Shown: in pieces, positions 2,951 to 44,442 of the stretch
How positions within the stretch are numbered: position 1 is the stretch's first letter
How the letters are laid out: every line of letters begins with the position of its first letter
Source of the DNA: Candidatus Latescibacterota bacterium
GTDB lineage: Bacteria; Latescibacterota; UBA2968; GCA-2709665
Direction: 5' to 3'
Assembly: GCA_965222075.1 (NCBI GenBank)
Contig: OZ244937.1
Location: forward strand, 3,072,001-3,136,000
DNA: 64,000 bases
Notes under the pieces: model-generated
Seen by the model: only the letters and a program-made list of their open reading frames with translations
Databases searched by the model: none
Told to the model about the DNA's origin: nothing
Made by a program: the position numbers and the translations under genes

Positions 2951-3811
2951 TTACGACGCGCTCACCAGTTTCTGCGCATTCTGATACGCAATCTTGTCGA
3001 ACGCCTCCTCCGGCAGGTCCAGCTCCTTCAGATAGTCCATCAATTCCGAACCAAAGTTGTCCCGCGCAAACAGCAGCTTGTCCTGAAACTCGATCAGGAA
3101 ATTTCTCCCGAACGCCCGGTCCCTCGAAATCCCCCCCAGCGCCGACCCGGCGGACAGATCCGCATACAGATTGTCGTATGTCCGCAGCATCTCCGGCGTC
3201 TTGCCTCCCGGCAGCACCGGCCCCCTGGGGTAGGCCTCCGCCTCGGCTCTGTCGTCCCCCGAAATATGCGCCCAGAACCCCTGAGCGTGCCCGATAAAAA
3301 TCGTCTCCGGACACGCCGCAACCGCCCGCTCCAACGCCTCGATACTTCCCCCGTACCACCAGTTGGGGCGGGGATAACCCTGAGTGCCACCGCCCGGATA
3401 CTGCAGGTGGATCGTAATCGGCAGCCCCATCTCTCCACAGGCCTGGTACAGCCGGATCGCATCCGGATCGTCGAACAGCATCCGGACCTTCAACTCTCCC
3501 GCCAGGCGAACCCCGTGGATCTCCACCGCCGCCTTCAGCCGGTCGATCGCATCCGGCCGCTTTGGGTGCGGCATGTACCCCAGCACGAACCGGTCCGGCG
3601 CATGGCGGCCCACGTCTAACACATCTTCAAACGGAATCGCCACCTTCCCCAGCGGCGGCAGGTGATTGTTTGTGCCGGGGCCGTAATCCTCCTGCGGGCA
3701 CTCCCACGTCAGCAGCCACAGCTTATCGATCCCCTGCTCGTCCATATTCTTCAAGATCTTCACCGCATCGTGTCCCCACCAGTTGGGATGGTTGTGTGCA
3801 TCAATCAGCAT
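2951..3811 (-). CDS. Amidohydrolase_2 family metallohydrolase
   Basis: IDAHNH, GELK, ITIH, FIGH, YADLS and LLFARD motifs. Confidence 0.85.
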   Translation of the reverse strand: MLIDAHNHPNWWGHDAVKILKNMDEQGIDKLWLLTWECPQEDYGPGTNNHLPPLGKVAIPFEDVLDVGRHAPDRFVLGYMPHPKRPDAIDRLKAAVEIHGVRLAGELKVRMLFDDPDAIRLYQACGEMGLPITIHLQYPGGGTQGYPRPNWWYGGSIEALERAVAACPETIFIGHAQGFWAHISGDDRAEAEAYPRGPVLPGGKTPEMLRTYDNLYADLSAGSALGGISRDRAFGRNFLIEFQDKLLFARDNFGSELMDYLKELDLPEEAFDKIAYQNAQKLVSAS

Positions 3812-3850
3812 CGCTTTCCTCCTCCTGAAAAATCACGACCTCTCGTTCGT

Positions 3851-6133
3851 TCAGCCGTCCGTCCGCTTCACCCACACCGGGCTTGACCACGCGTGCGGAC
3901 CTCTCGCCACCGCCACCGTGGACGGATAGTGGGTCCAGGGCGTCGACTGCTCGACCGACAGATAATAGAAATGCTCCCCCGTCCTGCAATCCCGGTCCAC
4001 ATACGAACCTGTCGCCTGAAAATCGCCCGCCCTCCATTTGCAAATACAGACCCCGTCCCGAATAAGCCCCACCGTCGCCGGCGGCGCCGTCACCTGTACC
4101 TCCCACCGGACTTCCGGGGGCTCCGAAACGGTCGCCTCCCCTCCCATAAACGCCCCATTCACCCGGAACTTCACCACAATCCGCGATCCATCCGTCGCAA
4201 AACAGCGGTGTTTTCTCAATGCGTCTAAGATCGCGTCTCGCGTCAGCGCCTCTGCATAAACGCCCGTGAGCCCTCCGCCCATCCCCGGGTTGCGCCGGTG
4301 GTTATCGCTGCTTCCAAAAAACCCGAACCGCCGTCCCCCACTGAGCAGCTCGTGAACCTTGTACTGGTACCTGGGATCCAGCATATGCACGCACCACCCC
4401 GAGCAGACCTCCACATTCGCCTCCGCCGGAGACGCTGTCAGCTCCCAGTTCTCGTGGTGGGGGTGCAGAATCGCGCCCTCTTTTTCAGCGTGCGCCGTAA
4501 TCGCCGCCATCGGTTCCCCCGCCACCTCCGAATATCGAATCAGCGGAAGATCTTCACTCCGTCCGATCACCGTCCGGTGGTAGCGCGTCCTGTGGTTCGG
4601 CTTCTTGCAGGTCCACTCGAAAGCCGGCAGCATCACAAACGTCCCGTCCCGGTGAAAATGCCGCACATAGGTGCAATACGTTTCGTACTCCGACGATGTC
4701 AGACTCAGCAGATGCTTGTCGTTGTCCTGGAGCACCACGCAATCCAGCCCCGCCTTGTCCCGGGCGTACGCAATCAGCTCGTCCACCTCCCCCTCCGCAT
4801 CGGCCGAAAGTCCCGTATGCGAGTGAAGGTCCGCCCAGTAAAGCTGGCATAATGAACCGCTCGCCTCAACCTCCGGACGCGAATCGGGCCGCGGCTCCCG
4901 CAGCACAACCGGCCGCCAGCCCTCCCAGGGCCCTTCCTTCTCCAGCGGAGACGCCCCCTCCAGTTCATATACCATCAGGCCCACATCTTCTGTCGACGTC
5001 TCAGCGTCAACGCGGCAGGCAACCCACAATCGACCCTCCTCAATCCCCGCAGGCGCGTACCACCGGGGGCCCTTCCCTATCGCCAGCGTCGGCCCCACCG
5101 TCTCACCGTCTAACTTCCGGCCGCACAGAATCCCCGGCGTCCACTGCGTGGAACCTTCCGGGACCTCCTTGCGCTCCCACAACATCCAGACCCCGCCGGA
5201 GGGGTCCGGCACAACCTGTGGCTTTCGCCGCCGCCCCAGGAACCCCCACACCCCGGCGCCGTGCTTGTCCAACAACCCCCACGCCAGCCCTCCCAGGTCC
5301 GCACACCCCTCCCCATCCGCTACCGCCGCCCACCCGGACGCGCCCAGACGCGCGGCCCTCGCCGTCGGCCACTGGTCCACCACCCCCTCTGTATTCTCCA
5401 CATCCTGCGAACACAGCCACACCACCCACGGCGCGCCGTCCGCATCCGTACAGACACACGGCGCAAACTGCCAGGCATCGGGCGTCACCATCCCTTCCGT
5501 CGCGGGCGGCATGCTCACCCGCTGCGGCGTCGAAACCGACCCATCCTCCCCCACAAACGCCGCCCATACCGAAAACGTCAACCCGTCGTATTCGTCCCAG
5601 CACACCCAGCACCCACCCTCTGCGGGAGCAACCGCAGGCCGCTGCATCCACCCGTCCTGCGCCCTCACCCGCACCGCCCCTCCCCGGTTCCCCCCGTCGA
5701 AGGCCGCCGCCCAAATCGAAAACATTCCGGGCCTCTCTGTCCGGCACCAGGCCGCCCACAGGCGTCCTCCCCCTGCAGCGGCGTGCAGCCCCACCGCCCC
5801 TTCCCCCTCTCCGACCGATCCGGGCGCGCCCCACCCGGATTCCGACCGGGAGGAATACACCACCCGGTGCCCTTCGCCCCCCTCGATCCACACCGCGGCC
5901 GGCGCCTCCTCAACAAGCCCCACAAAGGGCGAATGCCGCAGTCCCTCCTCAGGCGTGACCGCCTCCTGCGTTCCCATCTCCTCCCGGTCGCAGAACCGCG
6001 CAAAAATCCGTTCTTCGCCCCGTCGGTACCCCTGCCACACCGTCCACAGCCCGTCCGCCCCCAGCACCGCACAGGGTGTGAAACACTCCAGACCGCCGGT
6101 CCGCTCCGACAGCACCCGCTTCACCTGACCCAC
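3851..6133 (-). CDS. PHP-fold metallohydrolase (DUF3604/CehA-McbA-like) with N-terminal beta-propeller-like region
   Basis: WADLHSHT, DND, FEWT, HPHH, GFFGSSDNH and AWSSPVW motifs. Confidence 0.75.
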   Translation of the reverse strand: MGQVKRVLSERTGGLECFTPCAVLGADGLWTVWQGYRRGEERIFARFCDREEMGTQEAVTPEEGLRHSPFVGLVEEAPAAVWIEGGEGHRVVYSSRSESGWGAPGSVGEGEGAVGLHAAAGGGRLWAAWCRTERPGMFSIWAAAFDGGNRGGAVRVRAQDGWMQRPAVAPAEGGCWVCWDEYDGLTFSVWAAFVGEDGSVSTPQRVSMPPATEGMVTPDAWQFAPCVCTDADGAPWVVWLCSQDVENTEGVVDQWPTARAARLGASGWAAVADGEGCADLGGLAWGLLDKHGAGVWGFLGRRRKPQVVPDPSGGVWMLWERKEVPEGSTQWTPGILCGRKLDGETVGPTLAIGKGPRWYAPAGIEEGRLWVACRVDAETSTEDVGLMVYELEGASPLEKEGPWEGWRPVVLREPRPDSRPEVEASGSLCQLYWADLHSHTGLSADAEGEVDELIAYARDKAGLDCVVLQDNDKHLLSLTSSEYETYCTYVRHFHRDGTFVMLPAFEWTCKKPNHRTRYHRTVIGRSEDLPLIRYSEVAGEPMAAITAHAEKEGAILHPHHENWELTASPAEANVEVCSGWCVHMLDPRYQYKVHELLSGGRRFGFFGSSDNHRRNPGMGGGLTGVYAEALTRDAILDALRKHRCFATDGSRIVVKFRVNGAFMGGEATVSEPPEVRWEVQVTAPPATVGLIRDGVCICKWRAGDFQATGSYVDRDCRTGEHFYYLSVEQSTPWTHYPSTVAVARGPHAWSSPVWVKRTDG

Positions 6134-35843: not shown

Positions 35844-38306
35844 ATGTCCGAAACCGCTGAAAAGCCCAAAACCGTCCGCCTCAGCCTCCCCATCTCCGGC
35901 ATGTCCTGCGCCGCATGCGCCTCCCGCATCGAAAAGGGCCTGCAGGAGGTCCCCGGCGTGGCCGAGGCAGTCGTCAACTTCGGCGTGGAGCAGGCCACAG
36001 TCGCCTACGATCCGAAGCGGGTCGGCGTCGAACAGCTCGCCGAAAAGATCGGCGTCCTCGGCTACGATGTCCGGGGGGATGAGGTCACCCTCTCGGTGAA
36101 AGGCATGTCCTGCGCCGCATGCGTCTCCCGTGTGGAATATGCCCTAAGAGCGATCCCCGGCGTCATCAAGGCGAATGTTAACTTTGCCACCCACCAGGCA
36201 ACCGTCCGCTACCTCAACATCGACGTGGACGCCCTGAAGCAGTCCGTGGCCGACGCCGGCTATGAGGCATCGATGGTTGAGGAAGAGCAGGTATCGGAAG
36301 ATCGGGAACGGGCCGACCGCCGGGCCGAATACCGGGCCGTTCGCCTCCGCTTCGTCGTGGGCGGCGTCCTCTCTGCCCTCATCATGGGTGTCGGCATGGT
36401 CCATACCCTCCTGGGCGTTGACCTCCCCACGCGGGAGATCCACCTCCTCCTCTTCCTGCTTGCAACCCCCGTCCAGTTCTGGTGCGGATGGCGGTTCCTG
36501 AAAGGCTTCCAGACCGCGCTTTGGCATGCCACGGCCGACATGAACAGCCTCATCGCCGTGGGCACCCTCGCCGCCTACGGCTACAGCACAGCCCTCACCT
36601 TTGCGCCCCGCGCCGTTGCCGAAGTCGGCCAGGCCCTGCACGTCTACTTCGACACCTCGGCCATGATAATCACCCTCATTCTCCTTGGCCGGATGCTGGA
36701 GGCCAGGGCTAAGGGGCGCACCTCCGACGCCATCCGCAAACTGATGGACCTCCGCCCCCAGACCGCCCGCCTCATCCGGGATGACCAGACCCTTGTGGTC
36801 CCCGTTGAAGAAGTCGCCGTGGGAGACCTCCTCCGCGTCCGCCCGGGAGAAAAAATTCCCGTGGACGGCGCCCTCTACCAGGGCCGTTCCACAGTGGACG
36901 AATCGATGGTCACCGGCGAGAGCATCCCCGTGAAAAAAGGCCCCAACAGCCAGGTCACCGGCGGCACCCTTAACAAAACCGGAACCTTCACCTTTCGGGC
37001 CACCCAGGTCGGGTCGGAAACCGTCCTGGCCCGCATCGTCCAGATGGTCCGGCAGGCCCAGGGGTCCCGTGCCCCCATCCAGCGCCTCGCCGACCGGGTT
37101 GCGGGCATCTTCGTGCCCATCGTCTTCGGCATCGCCCTCCTCACCTTCCTTCTCTGGTACACCCTCGGCCCGCAGCCCCCGCTTGCTGCGGGCCTCCTCA
37201 ACGCCGTCGCCGTCCTCATCATCGCCTGCCCCTGCGCAATGGGCCTGGCCACCCCCACCGCCATCATGGTCGGCACCGGCCGGGGCGCCGAATTCGGCGT
37301 CCTCATTAAAGGGGGCGACGTCCTGGAAACCGCCTGCCGGCTCGACACGGTCGTCTTAGACAAAACCGGCACCCTCACCACCGGCGCGCCCGCCGTCACC
37401 GACCTCATCCCCGCCGACGGCTTCAGCGAAAAGGACCTGCTTGTGCTGGCCGCCTCGGCCGAACAGGCCTCGGAGCACCCCCTCGGTGAGGCCATCCTCA
37501 AAGCGGCGGGCGAACAAAACCTCTCCCTGCGGGAGGCGCAGGCATTCGAAGCCTTCCCCGGAGAGGGCATCGCCGCAGAAATCGCAGGGGTCACCCTACT
37601 CCTGGGCAACCGGCGGCTGATGGAAAATCAGGAAGTTCTTCTGGACGGATGGGCAGGACAGGCAAAGCGGCTTGAAAGAGAAGGAAAAACCACCGTATTC
37701 ATCGCAGCCGACGGCCGGCCGGCGGGGCTTATCGGCATCGCCGACACCCTCAAGCCGGGGGCCGCAGACGCAGTGGCCGACCTCCACGGCCTGGGCCTGA
37801 AAGTCGCCCTGGTCACCGGCGACAACGCCCGAACCGCAGAGGCGGTCGCCCGGATCGTCGGCATCGACCGGGTGCTGTCCGAAGTCATGCCGGAAGGGAA
37901 AGCCGACCGGATCGCGGAGCTTCAGGCCGGGCGAAAAGGGGTCGGCATGGTAGGCGATGGCATCAACGACGCCCCCGCCTTAGCCCGGGCCGACGTCGGC
38001 ATCGCCATCGGCACCGGCGCAGACATCGCCAAAGAAAGCGCAGACATCACCCTCATCTCCGGAGATCTGAGCGGCATCGGCGCGGCGGTGCGGCTCTCTA
38101 AGAAGACCATGCGAGTCATTCGCCAGAACCTCTTCTGGGCATTTGCCTACAACACCCTCCTCATCCCCATCGCCGCTGTGGGCCTTCTCAACCCCCTTGG
38201 CGGCCCCATGCTCGCAGCGGCGGCCATGGCCTTCAGCTCCGTCTCCGTCCTCTCCAACTCCCTCCGGCTGCGGCGGTTCGATCCAACTCAGCGCCGGTTC
38301 GCATAA
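35844..38306 (+). CDS. copA: Copper-translocating P1B-type ATPase
   Basis: Two GMSCAAC domains, [26 protein letters not shown] and MAFSS. Confidence 0.92.
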
Positions 38307-39409
38307 TTCAAAATCCCCTTCACAATCCGTTCGGCGCTCCGCTGCCGGTTCTTGTGAAACCGCAGCCTGTAGGCCTCGCCCCTGTCGTGCATATTGTGGA
38401 CCTCAACCAAGATCTCGGCATACGCCCGGTTGTTCCGGAGCACCCCCAAGTTGCGCCCCATGATCTGTGCGGGGAGATCGGGATGGTGCAGGGCCTTCTG
38501 CATCACCTGCGCGAACTTTCGGGAACGTTTATCGACCTTCCCCCTCCGGTTCAAATAGATCGCCAGCGGTCCCTTGGGCCGCCCCGGGCTGTTGTCTGCA
38601 TGCAGCGAAACAAAAAGGCTCTTCCCCTTCCGGGCGCCCTTGAAATGCCGGTTGGCAATCCTGACCCGTTGTAAGAGATTGTTCCCGCCGGGACGGACGG
38701 AGCCCGAACGCCTCTGGTTCCTCTTCGCGTCGTTGTAAACCTCGTTCTGCTCGTGCACGAAGGTCACGCTCGCCCGGAAGTTGTCGCGTATGAGGTGGTT
38801 GGGGCTGATCACCGTCAGCTCCACCTCCGCGCCCTTCAGCCGCAGAAGTTCGTATACCCGCAGCGCAATATCGTAGACATACTCGTCCTCAACCACGTAG
38901 ACCGAACGCTCCACCCCGTCCTTATTCGATACAATCGCCCCCGGATCGATGCCCCCATGCCCGGGATCAACCACCACCTTCCAGCCCTTCAGCGGCAGCC
39001 GCCTGCCCCGGTTTTGGGCCAGCCTGGCACGGATCTCTGCGTCGAACGCCTGCAATAGCGCACGGGCGTTCTGGTAATCCTTGATCGGTCGAAACCGGGA
39101 AGGCTCGATATACTTCCGGCTCTGCTGTGCAGCCACCCTCGGTTTATAAAAATAATAAGGACCGTTCTCGGCCTTTATCTCCTTGAGCCTGGGCCCCAAA
39201 CGCAGCACCTGTCCCGGATAGACCCGGTCGCTCCGGAGCCGGTTGAGCCGCTTGATCTCCTTTACGCTCACCTGGAACAGGCGGGCAATCGACCAGAGGG
39301 AATCCCCCTTCCGGACCTCGTACGTCAGAGAAAGCCCAAGCGGCTCCCCCAGGGTAAACAGGACCAGAAAAAGCCCGACACAGACCTGGAAAATGCGGTG
39401 TAAGGTCAT
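38288..39409 (-). CDS. LysM-domain N-acetylmuramoyl-L-alanine amidase
   Basis: [13 protein letters not shown] LysM; [17 protein letters not shown] and ILVE motifs; start approximate. Confidence 0.85.
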
Positions 39410-39664
39410 AGATTTAAAAACTGAAGGAGGATAAATTTTGGGGGGATTTGGCCTTGTGGTTGACCACAGCCGCGGAACCCCGGGTACAAACGGTGCAGCA
39501 CCCGAACGCATGATGCCTCTGAGTTCGCAGTCGTGGCCAATCGTCTTCAGGCGGCACCGAAGGGGCACGGTGCAAAGCCGGAAAAGACCCTTGAACATGC
39601 CAAAACATAGGGACTTTGGGGGAAAAAGGCAAGAGAAAGCGGCCAGACCGTATCCTGAACCGGT

Positions 39665-39874: not shown

Positions 39875-40552
39875 ATGGCCAAAGGAATCTTTTCAAGAAT
39901 GGCGGACATCATCAAAGCCAACATCAACGACCTCCTGAATCGGGCGGAAGACCCGGAAAAGATGATCCGCCAGATGATCCTCGAAATGGAGGAGGCCGTC
40001 AACAAGGCGACCGCGTCCGTCGGCACCGCCGTGGCCAACGAGAAGCGGCTGGAGCGCCAGTGCCTCGAGAAAAAGGACCAGATCAAGGCCTGGCAGAAAA
40101 AGGCCGAACTCGCCGTCCAGGACGGAGAAGACGACCTGGCCCGGCGGGCGCTGGAACGGAAAGCGGCCCTGGAAGAGGCCGCCAAAGACTTGAGCGCCGC
40201 CCTCGACGAAAGCCAGCGGACCTCCAAACAGCTCAAACAGCAGCTCATGCAGCTCAAGGCCAAACTGGACGAAGCCCGCACCCGCCAGGGCGCCCTCATC
40301 GCCCGGCGCAAAGCCGCAGAAGCCCGCAAGCAGATCGCCAAAGGCCTCTCCGGCGTGGGTGACGATGCCTTCTCCAGCTTCGAGCGGTTCCGCCAGCGGG
40401 TTGAAACCGAAGAGGCCGAAGCCGAAGCCCACCAGGAAATCGCCGGTTCCGAGCCTTCGCTGGAAGACGCCTTCACCAAACTCGAACGGAAGAGCACGGT
40501 GGAAGAGGAACTTGAAGTCCTCAAGAAAAAACTGGGCCGGACCGATGCGTGA
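39875..40552 (+). CDS. pspA: PspA/IM30 family protein
   Basis: GIFSRMADIIKANINDLL..AEDPEKMIRQ, W..KAELA...GEDDLAR.AL; GAGGAG RBS. Confidence 0.95.
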   Translation: MAKGIFSRMADIIKANINDLLNRAEDPEKMIRQMILEMEEAVNKATASVGTAVANEKRLERQCLEKKDQIKAWQKKAELAVQDGEDDLARRALERKAALEEAAKDLSAALDESQRTSKQLKQQLMQLKAKLDEARTRQGALIARRKAAEARKQIAKGLSGVGDDAFSSFERFRQRVETEEAEAEAHQEIAGSEPSLEDAFTKLERKSTVEEELEVLKKKLGRTDA

Positions 40553-40762
40553 CGTCCAGAAAATCTTAGACGAAATCGCCTGCTCAAACTCGCCCGGGAA
40601 AAGGGCGGCAGCCTCACCGTCCTCGAAGCCGCCACCGATGCCCGCATGACCGTAGAAAAGGCCGAGGAGATCCTCCGAGAACTGGCCGCCCGGGGCCACG
40701 CCGAGGTCCGCGTCTCCGAGTCGGGCCTCATCGTCTACTACTTCCCGGTGCACGAACTCTGA
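40545..40762 (+). CDS. Small winged-helix protein, frameshifted near 40573 (absent from ORF track)
   Basis: ATG overlaps the pspA stop (MRDVQKILDE); one extra A joins it to NRLLKLAREKGGSLTVLEAATDARMTVEKAEEILRELAARGHAEVRVSESGLIVYYFPVHEL*. Confidence 0.7.
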
Positions 40763-40781
40763 AACCTCAGGGAGGGCTGTC

Positions 40782-40991
40782 ATGATCGAAGTCGGATTTG
40801 GAGTTGCGCTGATCATCCTCGCTGTTGCGATCCTCAAATACGTGGAGCGACGCTACAAAGGCGCCATCCCCAGCGATGCCGAAGAACGGCTCATGGCCCG
40901 AATGGCCGAACTCGAACGACGCCTCACAGACATCCAGGACGTCATGATCACCATCGACGAAAAAATGAGCAGGAGCAATCCGGAGGAATGA
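40782..40991 (+). CDS. Small single-TM coiled-coil protein, PspB-like
   Basis: GGAGG RBS; N-terminal TM; RMAELERRLTDIQDVMITIDEK. Confidence 0.75.
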   Translation: MIEVGFGVALIILAVAILKYVERRYKGAIPSDAEERLMARMAELERRLTDIQDVMITIDEKMSRSNPEE

Positions 40992-41117
40992 TCTTCAGTG
41001 ACGCCGAAAAACGGCTCATTGGCCTGGATAGACGAACTCGAACGCATGCTCACAGACATCCAGGACGTCATGATCACCATCGACAATAAAATGAGCAGGC
41101 CCAAAGTGGAAATTTAA
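40988..41117 (+). pseudogene. Degenerate tandem duplicate of the 3' half of the PspB-like gene
   Basis: Near-identical DNA (ctcacagacatccaggacgtcatgatcaccatcgac); 1-nt insertion at cattggcc; no TM segment. Confidence 0.7.
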
Positions 41118-41150: not shown

Positions 41151-41408
41151 ATGATAGGCTGGATCCTGGAACTGATGATCGGCTTCTCTCTGATCATCGT
41201 CGTAAGCGGAACAGTAAGCTACGTTCACCTGAGGCTGAAACGCGCCTCGAAGGGAGTGAATCCGGACCGGGCCAAGCGGATGGAAGCCCGGCTGGACACC
41301 CTGGAACAGAGGTTGACCGATATTCAGGACATTATCATCGCCATCGACGAGAAGCTGAACCGGGCAGACTACCGACCGCCATCTCCGGTCCAAACAGACA
41401 AAGGATAA
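41151..41408 (+). CDS. Second single-TM coiled-coil protein, PspB-like
   Basis: GGAGG RBS; TM; RLDTLEQRLTDIQDIIIAIDEK. Confidence 0.75.
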   Translation: MIGWILELMIGFSLIIVVSGTVSYVHLRLKRASKGVNPDRAKRMEARLDTLEQRLTDIQDIIIAIDEKLNRADYRPPSPVQTDKG

Positions 41409-41412
41409 CGCC

Positions 41413-41592
41413 ATGCTCTCCAAAATCCTCGGCATCATCTTGATCGTCATCGGGGGTTCCCTGGCCCTCGGTGTCCTGTTTCAACTGATCGGCTCAATTG
41501 TCGGACTGCTCTGGGCCATGATCAAACTGGCCATACCGCTGGTCCTCCTCTACGTCGGCTACCGGCTGCTCACACGGGAACCGGATTATTAA
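41413..41592 (+). CDS. 59-aa two-TM membrane protein, PspG/LiaI-like (absent from ORF track)
   Basis: MLSKILGIILIVIGGSLALGVLFQLIGSIVGLLWAMIKLAIPLVLLYVGYRLLTREPDY; AAGGA RBS; fills the operon gap exactly. Confidence 0.75.
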   Translation: MLSKILGIILIVIGGSLALGVLFQLIGSIVGLLWAMIKLAIPLVLLYVGYRLLTREPDY

Positions 41593-41604: not shown

Positions 41605-42186
41605 ATGCCACAAACAGAAGACCGCGTCCTGATCCGTCGGGTGCTGGCGGGAGATCACTCAGCTTTTGACACCCTCTACAAGACCCACCATCCACAGGTC
41701 TACGCCATGATCGCCCGTCGCGTCTCCGACAGAGACCTCACAGAAGACCTGGTCCAGACCACCTTCCTGCGCGCCTTCCGTTCCCTTAACACCTACCGGG
41801 GCGACGCGGCCTTCTCCACCTGGCTGACTCAGATCGCCTTAAACGTCTTCAAATCTCACCTCCGGGCGCAGCGGGTGCGGCAGACCTGGGTACACGAAAC
41901 CGAAGACCCCGAACGGGCGACCGGAATCGACCGGGAGCCGGCCCCCTGTGAAAATCCCGAACAGGTGATGCAGCAGAAAGAACGCCGAAAACTCGTCATA
42001 CAGGGCATCCGGTCTCTGCCTGCGCGTTACCGCAAAGCGGTCTGGCTGCGCTACATCAAGGACTGGTCCTACGAAGAAATCACGCAGGCGCTCCAGGTGC
42101 CGATGGGCACGGTCAAAACCCGGCTCTGCCGGGGGCGCCGGCAGTTGAAAGGGGAATTTCGCAAACTGGGCCTCCAGGCAGTATAG
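41605..42186 (+). CDS. ECF RNA polymerase sigma factor
   Basis: EDLVQTTFLRAF, FSTWL..IA.N, SYEEI...L.VPMGTVKTRL.RGR. Confidence 0.92.
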   Translation: MPQTEDRVLIRRVLAGDHSAFDTLYKTHHPQVYAMIARRVSDRDLTEDLVQTTFLRAFRSLNTYRGDAAFSTWLTQIALNVFKSHLRAQRVRQTWVHETEDPERATGIDREPAPCENPEQVMQQKERRKLVIQGIRSLPARYRKAVWLRYIKDWSYEEITQALQVPMGTVKTRLCRGRRQLKGEFRKLGLQAV

Positions 42187-42255: not shown

Positions 42256-42861
42256 ATGGAAGCCTGGTGGACAAACCTGACCACGTTGAACCAGATCCTC
42301 TACCTCGTGGCGATCTTTTTCAGCACGCTCTTCGCCTGGCAGTTTGCGGCGGCCCTGCTCGGCCTGGGAGGGGGCGCCGATGTGGGCGGGGGCGACGCGA
42401 CCGCAGGGGATGCCGGACCGGAGATCGACGACATGGTCCAGGACGCAAGCGTGGCCGCCTTCAAACTCCTGTCGGTCCGTTCCATCATCGCATTTGGCAT
42501 GCTCTTCGGCTGGGCCGGCGCGCTCTACCTCCAGTCGGGCACCGAGGTGGAAAGCGCGCTCCTCTACAGCCTGGTCTGGGGGGCCGCCGCGATGGTCGCC
42601 GTGGCCTATTTTTACCACGGCATTCAGCAGCTCACCGAGACCGGCAACCCCAAGCTGGAGACCTGCGTCGGCGCGTCGGGTGAGGTCTACATCGACATCC
42701 CCGAAAACGGGATCGGGCAGATCCGCGTGGTGGAAAGCGGCGCGGTCTCCTACGTATCCGCCCGGGGGAAAAACGGCGCCCCGATCCCGAACAAGACTCC
42801 GGTATGGGTACGGCGGGTAATCGATGGGACCACGCTCGAGGTCGAACAAATCGAACCCTGA
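42256..42861 (+). CDS. NfeD/YqiJ-like membrane protein with C-terminal OB fold
   Basis: Three TM segments, then VGASGEVYIDIP...GQIRV; directly upstream of flotillin. Confidence 0.85.
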   Translation: MEAWWTNLTTLNQILYLVAIFFSTLFAWQFAAALLGLGGGADVGGGDATAGDAGPEIDDMVQDASVAAFKLLSVRSIIAFGMLFGWAGALYLQSGTEVESALLYSLVWGAAAMVAVAYFYHGIQQLTETGNPKLETCVGASGEVYIDIPENGIGQIRVVESGAVSYVSARGKNGAPIPNKTPVWVRRVIDGTTLEVEQIEP

Positions 42862-42897: not shown

Positions 42898-44442
42898 ATG
42901 CCAAATCCGATGATCCTGACGATGATTTTAGTCGCGGTCGTGTTTCTGCTGTTCCTGACCTTCATCTCCAGGTACAAGCGCTGCCCGTCCAACAATATCC
43001 TGGTGATCTACGGCAAAACAGGGAGTGGTGCGGCCAAGTGCGTGCACGGAGGCGCGGCCTTCGTCCTGCCCCTGTTGCAGGACTACAAATACCTGGACTT
43101 GGAGCCGTTCGTCGTGCCCATCGACTTAGACAATGCGCTCTCCCAGGAAAACATCCGGGTGTCCGTGCCCACAACGGTCACTGCCGCCGTCTCGAACCAG
43201 CAGGGCATCATGCAAAACGCCGCGGTCCGCCTCCTGGGCCTGTCGCACGACCAGATCCAGAGCCAGGCGCAGGACATCATCCTGGGCCAGATGCGGGCCG
43301 TGATTGCAACAATGGAGATCGAAGAGATCAACCAGGACCGGCAGGCCTTTATGGGCAAGGTCAACGAGGCGGTCTCCACCGAGATGGAAAAAATCGGTCT
43401 GGCCGTGATCAACGTGAACATCAAAGACATCGAGGACGAAAGCGGATATATCAAAGCCCTCGGCCAGAAAGCGGCGGCCGAAGCAATCAACCAGGCGGCC
43501 ATCGACGTGGCCGAGCAGGAGAAAATGGGCAAGGTGGGGGTGGCCGAGCGGGAAAGGGACCAGCGCACGGATGTGGCCGCTGCGAACGCGGCCGCTGAAA
43601 TCGGTGAATCCCAGGCCGCCCGGGACCGGCGTCAGAGGGTCGCCGCCCTCGAATCCGAAGCCGAAATCGGTGAATCCCAGGCCGCCCGGGACCGGCGCCA
43701 GAGTGTCTCCTCTCTGGATGCGGAAGCGGTCCAGGCCGAGGCCGAGGCCGAATCCAAGAAGGCCGGCTACATGGCCCAGCAGAGGGTGGCCGAGGAGGTT
43801 GCCCGGCAAAAAGGGCAGGAGGCCGCAAAGGCCGCAGACGGCGCCATCCGGGTCGCGCAGGAACGGGCGGAGAAAGAGGCCGAGGAAGCCCGGGCGCTGC
43901 GCGAAGAAGCGCGTCTGAAAGCCGAAATCGTCGTACACGCCGAAGCGGAAAAACAGAAGCTGGTGGTACAGTCCGAGGCCGAGAAAACGCAGAAAACCCT
44001 GGTGGCAGAAGGGGAGGCCGCCGCCATCCTGGCCCAGAAGCAAGCCGAAGCCCAGGGCACGCAGGCCATCCTGGATGCGAAGGCCGAAGGTTACAGAGAG
44101 CTGGTGGCCGCATGCGGCGGAAAAGATCAGGCTGCCGCAGCCTTCCTCATCATCGAGCGGCTCACCGAGGTGGCGGGCATCCAGGCCGAGGCCATTCAGA
44201 ACCTGCCTTTGGAGAAGGTGATGGTCTGGGACGGCGGCAATGAACAGGGCGGCCTGTCCAACCTGGGCCAGCGCCTGATGGGCACCATCCCCCCGATGCA
44301 CGATCTGGCCCGGCTGGCCGGCCTGGAGCTCCCTGAATTCCTCGGCAGAATGACGGGAAGCAGCGAGCAGCAGACGCACACGTCCGACAGCGGCGGTGGC
44401 GGTACAGCGGAGGCGGGGGGCCAGACCGGGCCGTCCACTTAA
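42898..44442 (+). CDS. Flotillin (SPFH/Band 7) family protein
   Basis: RYKRCPSN.ILVIYG, GGAAFV.P, GQMR.VIA.M.IEEIN.DR; AE-rich coiled coil. Confidence 0.92.
   Translation: MPNPMILTMILVAVVFLLFLTFISRYKRCPSNNILVIYGKTGSGAAKCVHGGAAFVLPLLQDYKYLDLEPFVVPIDLDNALSQENIRVSVPTTVTAAVSNQQGIMQNAAVRLLGLSHDQIQSQAQDIILGQMRAVIATMEIEEINQDRQAFMGKVNEAVSTEMEKIGLAVINVNIKDIEDESGYIKALGQKAAAEAINQAAIDVAEQEKMGKVGVAERERDQRTDVAAANAAAEIGESQAARDRRQRVAALESEAEIGESQAARDRRQSVSSLDAEAVQAEAEAESKKAGYMAQQRVAEEVARQKGQEAAKAADGAIRVAQERAEKEAEEARALREEARLKAEIVVHAEAEKQKLVVQSEAEKTQKTLVAEGEAAAILAQKQAEAQGTQAILDAKAEGYRELVAACGGKDQAAAAFLIIERLTEVAGIQAEAIQNLPLEKVMVWDGGNEQGGLSNLGQRLMGTIPPMHDLARLAGLELPEFLGRMTGSSEQQTHTSDSGGGGTAEAGGQTGPST
43597..43697 (+). 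repeat. In-frame 35-bp perfect direct repeat, 66-bp period
   Basis: gaaatcggtgaatcccaggccgcccgggaccggcg at 43597 and 43663. Confidence 0.85.

Follow-up and report, generated by a model that had tools for sequence, protein, structure and literature searches.

A start-less winged-helix frame behind pspA in a Latescibacterota genome, probable remnant of a conserved gene for a putative membrane-anchored PspA partner

What is a winged-helix sequence without a start codon doing directly behind pspA? The question is raised by a stretch of 64,000 nucleotides (nt) from a Candidatus Latescibacterota bacterium (assembly GCA_965222075.1, contig OZ244937.1, positions 3,072,001 to 3,136,000), hereafter called the window. 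Its pspA gene (39875-40552, + strand) is intact and encodes a protein of 225 amino acids (aa), which matches Pfam PspA_IM30 (PF04012) over residues 4-219 (E 2e-46; 158.8 bits against a cut-off of 33.9) and NCBIfam TIGR02977 (E 7e-55) and is 76-95% identical to the PspA of 39 relatives. Directly 3' of the pspA TGA (40550-40552), and in the same frame, 69 codons run without a stop (40553-40762), with no in-frame ATG, GTG or TTG upstream of an ATG at 40646. The pspA stop is also overlapped by the start of the next gene, an ATG at 40545 (ATGcgTGA), which now opens a frame of 34 codons ending at TGA 40647-40649. Direct reading of the GAAAT at 40572-40576 shows that one added A would fuse this ATG frame with the winged-helix frame. 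All of these features had been noted correctly in an earlier reading made without database searches (the sequence-only reading), which offered an assembly error, a real frameshift mutation or recoding as explanations and envisaged a hidden, stand-alone winged-helix partner of PspA, possibly ESCRT-II-like. The analysis reported here favours another answer, with a probability of roughly 85%: the start-less frame would be the 3' remnant, a recent pseudogene, of a conserved gene that follows pspA and whose intact form is a putative membrane-anchored partner of PspA.

To judge from its matches, the frame 40553-40762 is not a product of chance. A search with the 69-residue translation in 41 genomes from the same order, the window's genome among them, gave one match each in 40. 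In the 39 other genomes the matches had E-values from 2e-12 to 4e-30 and lay inside open frames of 175-230 codons. No second copy of the translation was found in the window's own genome, the next match standing at E 0.33. An NCBIfam scan of the remnant returned nothing meaningful, and its sole Pfam match, to SelB-wing_1, reached 21.3 bits, which is under the 25-bit cut-off. A non-canonical start for the remnant was considered and rejected, since the sole in-frame candidate seen, CTG at 40580, lacks a purine-rich ribosome-binding site upstream.

The relatives carry a much longer gene at this place. At 39/39 loci (a script was run over all 39, and lists of open reading frames (ORFs) were inspected for two) the gene behind pspA directly adjoins it on the same strand and encodes 168-223 aa, and at 39/39 its start overlaps the pspA stop by 8 nt, as ATGnnTGA or ATGnnTAA. 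In the alignment the N-terminal helix is followed by a linker of variable sequence, then by a conserved motif with an invariant cysteine, two hydrophobic segments, the stretch retained in the window and a conserved charged tail. The idea of a stand-alone protein does not fit these loci, the product at each of them being 168-223 aa long and, by prediction, embedded in the membrane. One same-genus relative (G001, L002 717-1223) encodes 168 aa, compared with 201 aa for the homologue P0006, 33 codons having been lost in frame from the N-terminal helix and linker; this region seems either dispensable or prone to deletion.

Set beside P0006, the window copy has kept both ends of the gene, with its first 12 and last 60 codons matching those of the intact 201-aa protein. 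The native start and first 12 codons (40545-40580, + strand) correspond to P0006 residues 1-12, after which the frame runs out of register to TGA 40647-40649. The winged-helix domain and the end of the tail remain at 40577-40762 (+), 92% identical to the same-genus relative, now in the pspA frame and without a start codon or ribosome-binding site of their own. Between the two pieces about 116 codons plus 1 nt have been removed, from the remainder of the N-terminal helix through the linker and conserved motif to the two membrane helices and the juxtamembrane stretch. The closest comparison comes from a relative of about 96% identity (a contig from run X1), in which 360 nt stand in place of the window's 11 nt at 40566-40576, a net difference of 349 nt, or 3 x 116 + 1; in a DNA alignment with the same-genus relative, where the gap was placed by hand, it measures 247 nt. 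Up to 4 nt (CGCC) are common to both flanks of the large-deletion junction (40577-40581, +), a microhomology deduced from the right flank of the relative. At a second junction (40744-40748, +), the flanks of which share CCCG, 39 nt are missing in frame, which takes 13 codons out of the conserved C-terminal tail; at 40748 the X1 contig is longer by 38 letters. The lengths add up, with 218 + 349 + 39 = 606 nt, or 201 codons plus a stop, the length of P0006.

These observations suggest the following course of events. The intact gene is translated by coupling to pspA through the ATGnnTGA overlap. A deletion flanked by microhomology (net 349 nt) removed codons 13 to about 128 and, because its length is of the form 3n + 1, put the winged helix into another frame, and a further 39-nt deletion clipped the tail. 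The present product would be a peptide of 34 residues, with the start-less winged helix most likely silent. The seemingly missing A is then a frame consequence of the large deletion, because relatives hold about 116 more codons between the two pieces. Of the frameshift mutation suggested earlier, the break in the frame is real, but its cause is an out-of-frame loss of net 349 nt and not of one base.

Could the window instead lack a single A at GAAAT (40572-40576) through an assembly or sequencing error, the true gene encoding a stand-alone winged-helix protein of 72 aa? One added base does join both frames. This explanation is contradicted by independently assembled contigs of three runs (X19, X21 and X23) from three studies, in which 40200-40952 is covered without an indel and with 0, 0 and 1 mismatch, these being assembled contigs rather than raw reads and possibly from one strain, since they are 1 single-nucleotide polymorphism apart. 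The 72-aa form occurs in no relative, the long form being present in 39/39, and the net 349 nt that the X1 relative has in addition at the same spot point to a 3n + 1 deletion and not to a lost base. An assembly slip in the window is very unlikely, and a 72-aa gene hidden by one retains almost no probability. What had been taken for a hidden gene would be the 3' remnant of a gene for a protein with two transmembrane helices, minus net 349 nt.

Recoding would give the arrangement a function, either through a programmed -1 frameshift from the ATG frame or through read-through of the pspA TGA to yield a fusion of PspA with the winged helix. The position of the winged helix, in the pspA frame directly behind TGA and C, speaks for it; in E. 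coli, termination at TGA followed by C is weak. The existence of PspA-PspAA fusions, and of archaeal ESCRT-III proteins that carry a winged helix at the C-terminus (PMC11237479), also counts in its favour. On the other hand, no slippery heptamer of the form X XXY YYZ was found by eye in the ATG frame from 40553 to 40646, the TGA-C context is no more than the M-R-D start that relatives conserve in the partner gene, and intact relatives read the partner in another frame, so that no fusion product results. Moreover, the arrangement arose by deletion; a 3n + 1 deletion leaves two possible frames, one of which is the pspA frame, and the position in that frame therefore needs no special explanation. 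Recoding is thus considered highly improbable. From the comparison of loci, the window feature is best described as a recent pseudogene remnant and not as recoding, a hidden gene or an assembly error.

What would the intact gene encode? An AlphaFold2 model of a 213-aa relative (31-sequence alignment; mean predicted local distance difference test score 74.8) has a helix at residues 3-31, a low-confidence linker, two long helices (55-95 and 101-147) that hold both hydrophobic segments, and a winged helix composed of a strand (151-153), helices 154-161 and 165-177 and a hairpin (182-185/191-194). One winged helix per intact protein is predicted (residues ~135-195). Both the winged-helix fold and the helix-helix-helix-hairpin pattern of the sequence-only reading are supported by this model, which suggests a protein of about 200 aa in which a membrane hairpin of two helices, its ends lying on the same side, is preceded by an N-terminal helix and followed by a winged helix, both of them cytoplasmic, and then by the conserved charged tail. 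In the pspA-coupled clade, R184 and E156/E182 do not vary, and there is no invariant Asp inside the domain.

The likeness to ESCRT-II that had been suspected is real in the model but, in these comparisons, not specific. A Foldseek search of the model against the PDB returned nothing at E <= 1e-3, and the best of the weak matches were the extended winged helix of TFIIIC tau138 (5e-3) and human ESCRT-II chain A (1.3e-2; 60 columns, root-mean-square deviation 1.5, 28% identity), with further weak matches to MarR, Z-alpha, TFE and IclR. ESCRT-II Vps22 ties with the winged helices of Z-alpha, ArsR, Fur, MarR, TFE and SelB within 1 Z unit and, because these others tie, the fold is best regarded as a generic winged helix. 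The architecture differs as well: ESCRT-II (Vps22/Snf8, Vps25, Vps36) is soluble and carries tandem winged helices in a Y-shaped heterotetramer, whereas the pspA-coupled family, with a single winged helix and a membrane anchor, misses two defining features of that complex.

The same structural neighbours raise the alternative of a membrane-tethered transcription regulator, whose winged helix would bind DNA under the control of PspA or membrane stress in a role like that of PspF or ClgR. Most of these neighbours are DNA- or Z-DNA-binding winged helices, and an extracytoplasmic function (ECF) sigma factor ends the gene cluster in the window. In two further papers, pspA genes adjoin winged-helix or helix-turn-helix (HTH) genes (PMC10936438, PMC9239133), often regulators of the latter type (PMC9239133). 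The charge of the domain argues otherwise. By a sequence proxy, the net charge is -1 to -3 for helix 3 and -1 to 0 for the wing in 31/31 clade members, helix 3 and wing together being net negative in all of them; a basic recognition helix and wing were not seen by this proxy, and the mean charge of the winged-helix domain in the wider alignment is -3.5. No DNA-binding HTH family of Pfam was found at E <= 0.01 in the 31 members, SelB-wing_1 matching one of them, and the two helices would hold the domain at the membrane. The acidic helix 3 and wing and the want of an HTH match above threshold set the partner family apart from DNA-binding winged HTH regulators such as MarR, ArsR, IclR and Fur, and a regulator of this type is judged quite unlikely.

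How closely the gene is tied to pspA was surveyed in 168 genomes of the phylum, belonging to 14 families, with profiles for the partner and for PspA, which matched in 103 and 104 genomes, respectively. Partner and PspA were found in 20/21 and 21/21 genomes of family f1, in 30/31 and 31/31 of f2, in 52/76 and 49/76 of f4 and in 0/2 and 2/2 of f9, and both were at 0 in the ten other families. The partner gene immediately follows pspA, with contig and strand in common, in 99/100 genomes, the hundredth copy being at a contig start; this count leaves out the window's genome and two weak matches (E 9e-5), and was made from coordinates compared by eye, of which 56 were verified at ORF level. In a third family adjacency was found at 17/17 loci checked. 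For an outgroup member, P0132, pspA is directly upstream at 5/6 metagenome loci, and the sixth locus starts at a contig end. The coupling to pspA, which the sequence-only reading had claimed, is thus upheld by the 8-nt overlap at 39/39 loci of relatives and by the adjacency in 99/100 phylum genomes with a strong match, and in the closeness of its link to pspA the family equals any known Psp partner.

The partner gene, conserved as it is, has been lost on several occasions, and three lineages (the window genome, G003 and G085) keep pspA. These losses, and a second broken gene in the window's own cluster at 40988-41117, speak for the pseudogene reading. In G003, which is of the same family and 97% complete, a partner remnant of 61 codons stands at the syntenic locus (L101 1320-1505, - strand), with the amidase gene beside pspA; in G085 (84% complete; L100) an unrelated gene lies directly 3' of pspA. 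These three lineages with pspA and without the partner offer natural comparisons and, if the role proposed below is true, would be natural knock-outs. Two drafts show other irregularities. In G151 (C35:17430-18597) the matches to pspA and to the partner are interrupted by in-frame stops, 2 TAG in the former and 2 TAG and 1 TAA in the latter, which may reflect a decayed operon or a draft-assembly problem, and in G005, an 80%-complete draft, the partner copy ends inside the winged helix. The window genome (G000) also has two more PspA-like genes, at C1 2702272-2702940 and 3897124-3897813, with 56% and 32% identity; among the ORFs listed around the first of these (L102) none resembled the partner gene, as judged by ORF listing without a partner-profile scan.

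Beyond the phylum, a profile search of 1.84 billion representatives returned 1329 proteins at E <= 1e-3, 137 of them at E <= 1e-10. The best 150 matches are mostly proteins of about 150 aa that consist of two membrane helices, the winged helix and a tail, and a Pfam scan of 18 among these 150 found the winged-helix module fused to TMEM43 (3), RDD (1) and cyclase (1) domains. In the wider alignment a single column, a Gly, is invariant. The module thus appears broader than the Psp system, with the pspA-coupled clade as one branch. Among individual members, the winged helix and tail stand C-terminally in membrane proteins of the TMEM43 (PF07787), RDD and adenylate-cyclase types (P0158, P0165, P0226, P0149 and P0269), and stand-alone forms of the module, of 77-80 aa, are represented by P0156 and P0172.

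The family is without a name in the sources covered. Its proteins are called 'hypothetical protein' and come from metagenome-assembled genomes (MAGs) labelled Gemmatimonadota or Latescibacterota. No Pfam family covers the pspA-coupled clade, the 31 members scanned giving no convincing match to a named domain, and a search of the ESM Atlas with the domain gave only unnamed clusters with scores < 0.9. Weak matches to SHOCT-like_DUF2089-C, a type of domain connected by other authors with Psp systems, were seen in 5/31 partner proteins (alignment A2), the best at E 0.002. A two-helix membrane winged-helix partner of PspA was not found described in the accessible text of PspA and Psp papers including PMC11237479, PMC9239133, PMC10936438, PMC7619361, PMC13505992 and bioRxiv 10.1101/2023.10.10.561251, and within that literature the family appears undescribed.

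Several observations weigh against the frame being a recent pseudogene of a PspA partner gene. With regard to the pseudogene, all 4 differences in the winged helix from the X1 relative are synonymous and no additional decay is seen in the remnant, a pattern that agrees with a recent deletion, is also compatible with continued use and carries no power on relaxed selection. As the remnant lies in the pspA frame behind a TGA-C stop, low-level read-through is conceivable, and a minority intact allele is possible behind the contigs of X19, X21 and X23. With regard to the partnership, PspA of the same type occurs without the partner in G049 and G050, extra copies of the partner within the phylum (4 copies in 4 genomes) are not beside pspA in 4/4 cases, and the wider winged-helix family with two transmembrane helices is not generally linked to pspA. 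In MAGs of Longimicrobiaceae, pspA was nearby at 0/7 loci of the 150-aa form, some of these loci being cut by contig ends. At the three Longimicrobiaceae loci with enough flank (L095-L097, ~3446-4160) the 150-aa homologue overlaps by 8 nt a Zn_ribbon_TFIIB gene, the product of which is ~237 aa long and has two Zn_ribbon_TFIIB stretches (E 8e-17).

Such loci lend some weight to the alternative that the intact family has nothing to do with PspA function and is a general winged-helix module tethered to the membrane, its linkage to pspA being no more than an inherited gene order. Its occurrence in Longimicrobiaceae, in overlap with a Zn-ribbon gene and away from pspA, its fusion to TMEM43, RDD and cyclase domains, and the three lineages that dropped the partner yet kept pspA all favour this alternative. 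It has to be set against the retention of the 8-nt overlap at 39/39 loci from two families at a protein identity of only 51-80%, the adjacency at the 17/17 loci checked in a third family and the near coincidence of the two genes over the 14 families (103 and 104 of 168 genomes). Gene order as the whole explanation is considered unlikely.

A role as a PspA partner is the preferred account of the intact family, and the steps proposed are these. The protein would be made in step with PspA and seated in the inner membrane, where a winged helix that does not bind DNA, together with the tail, would recruit or regulate PspA polymers at the inner membrane face. This role would equal that of LiaI, PspB/C and PspM elsewhere, and that of VIA1 for VIPP1. 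The intact family is probably an undescribed, PspA-binding membrane winged-helix family. A physical interaction of the intact protein with PspA is slightly favoured over its absence. Contact by way of the winged helix, as between Vps25 and Vps20 or VIA1 and VIPP1, is put forward tentatively, and it is equally doubtful whether the family is a non-photosynthetic counterpart of VIA1 or ESCRT-II, that is, a membrane winged-helix receptor made at a fixed ratio to PspA that would dock or nucleate PspA polymers. A complex prediction for PspA (alignment A5) with the winged helix and tail (A2 residues 128-213) gave a score of 0.11 (mark 0.32) and, the N-terminal helix and membrane part having been left out, is uninformative either way. 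The earlier suggestion of a winged-helix partner for PspA may thus survive for the intact family, with two corrections: the partner would be anchored in the membrane and not stand-alone, and its likeness to ESCRT-II would be that of a common fold only.

Among known systems, the nearest in description is VIA1 (CPLD50), a membrane protein with two winged helices, a loop of which binds helix alpha-1 of VIPP1 according to two reports (PMC13505992; bioRxiv 10.1101/2023.10.10.561251). Common to both is a membrane-embedded winged-helix protein tied to an ESCRT-III-like protein of the PspA/VIPP1 family, the tie being genomic only for the pspA-coupled family (99/100 genomes). As far as the descriptions allow comparison, they differ in that VIA1, which is reported from oxygenic phototrophs, has three predicted membrane helices and a pair of winged helices, whereas the pspA-coupled family has one winged helix, two membrane helices, a conserved tail and translational coupling to pspA, in a non-cyanobacterial phylum. 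PspAA is described as a small, trihelical PspA-associated domain whose R and D are absolutely conserved and which stands alone or is fused to the C-terminus of PspA (PMC11237479). It resembles the present family in being paired with pspA in a cluster of two genes and, compared by description, differs in that the pspA-coupled domain would be membrane-anchored and only a Gly is invariant in the wider alignment. PspB and PspC of E. coli, LiaI of B. subtilis and PspM of M. tuberculosis, the last with two membrane helices, are small inner-membrane proteins of pspA operons that tether or signal to PspA (PMC7619361; PMC11237479). None of these carries a winged helix, and the partner family has no sequence similarity to PspB.

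The window feature itself, a decayed gene, is ordinary; it points to an unnamed family in which a membrane anchor is paired with a winged helix. Partners of ESCRT-III-type proteins that carry a winged helix are of current interest, with regard both to VIA1-VIPP1 and to the origin of ESCRT-II, and a second, independent one, anchored in the membrane and belonging to another phylum, would make a useful test case. If the proposed role is true, the pairing of winged-helix and ESCRT-III proteins would extend past archaea, eukaryotes and oxygenic phototrophs.

The genes that follow, as far as position 44442, form an envelope-stress island together with pspA. Behind the remnant lies a gene for a 69-aa protein with one membrane helix and a coiled coil (40782-40991, +), which has no assigned family and is conserved behind the partner gene in L002 and L003. 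It is followed by a second broken gene (40988-41117, +), a copy of the 69-aa gene without the membrane-helix part and with a 1-nt frame change, which is picked up by the repeat families D2 (offset 125, 79% identity) and D1 (offset 126, 86%) and needs two frames to be read. An 85-aa paralogue of the small membrane/coiled-coil protein (41151-41408, +) is the third D1 copy, at 64% identity. Next come a 59-aa protein with two hydrophobic stretches (41413-41592, +), with no assigned family and with a counterpart at the same locus in G003, and the ECF-type sigma factor that ends the cluster (41605-42186, +; Pfam Sigma70_r2 E 5e-17, Sigma70_r4_2 E 2e-15). Beyond it are a 201-aa protein (42256-42861), with only a sub-threshold match to NfeD (E 0.062), and a 514-aa Band_7/SPFH protein of the flotillin type (42898-44442). 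Upstream of pspA, on the opposite strand, lies an amidase gene with a LysM domain (38288-39598).

The small one-helix/coiled-coil proteins (40782-40991 and 41151-41408; L003 338-1438) are tandemly duplicated and have a C-terminal helix motif in common. Their layout is PspB-like with no family match, the best being that of the 85-aa gene to TIGR02976 at E 0.21. Copy number varies between relatives: L002 has one copy and L003 has three ORFs, and in one of these three an added N-terminal part precedes the C-terminal motif.

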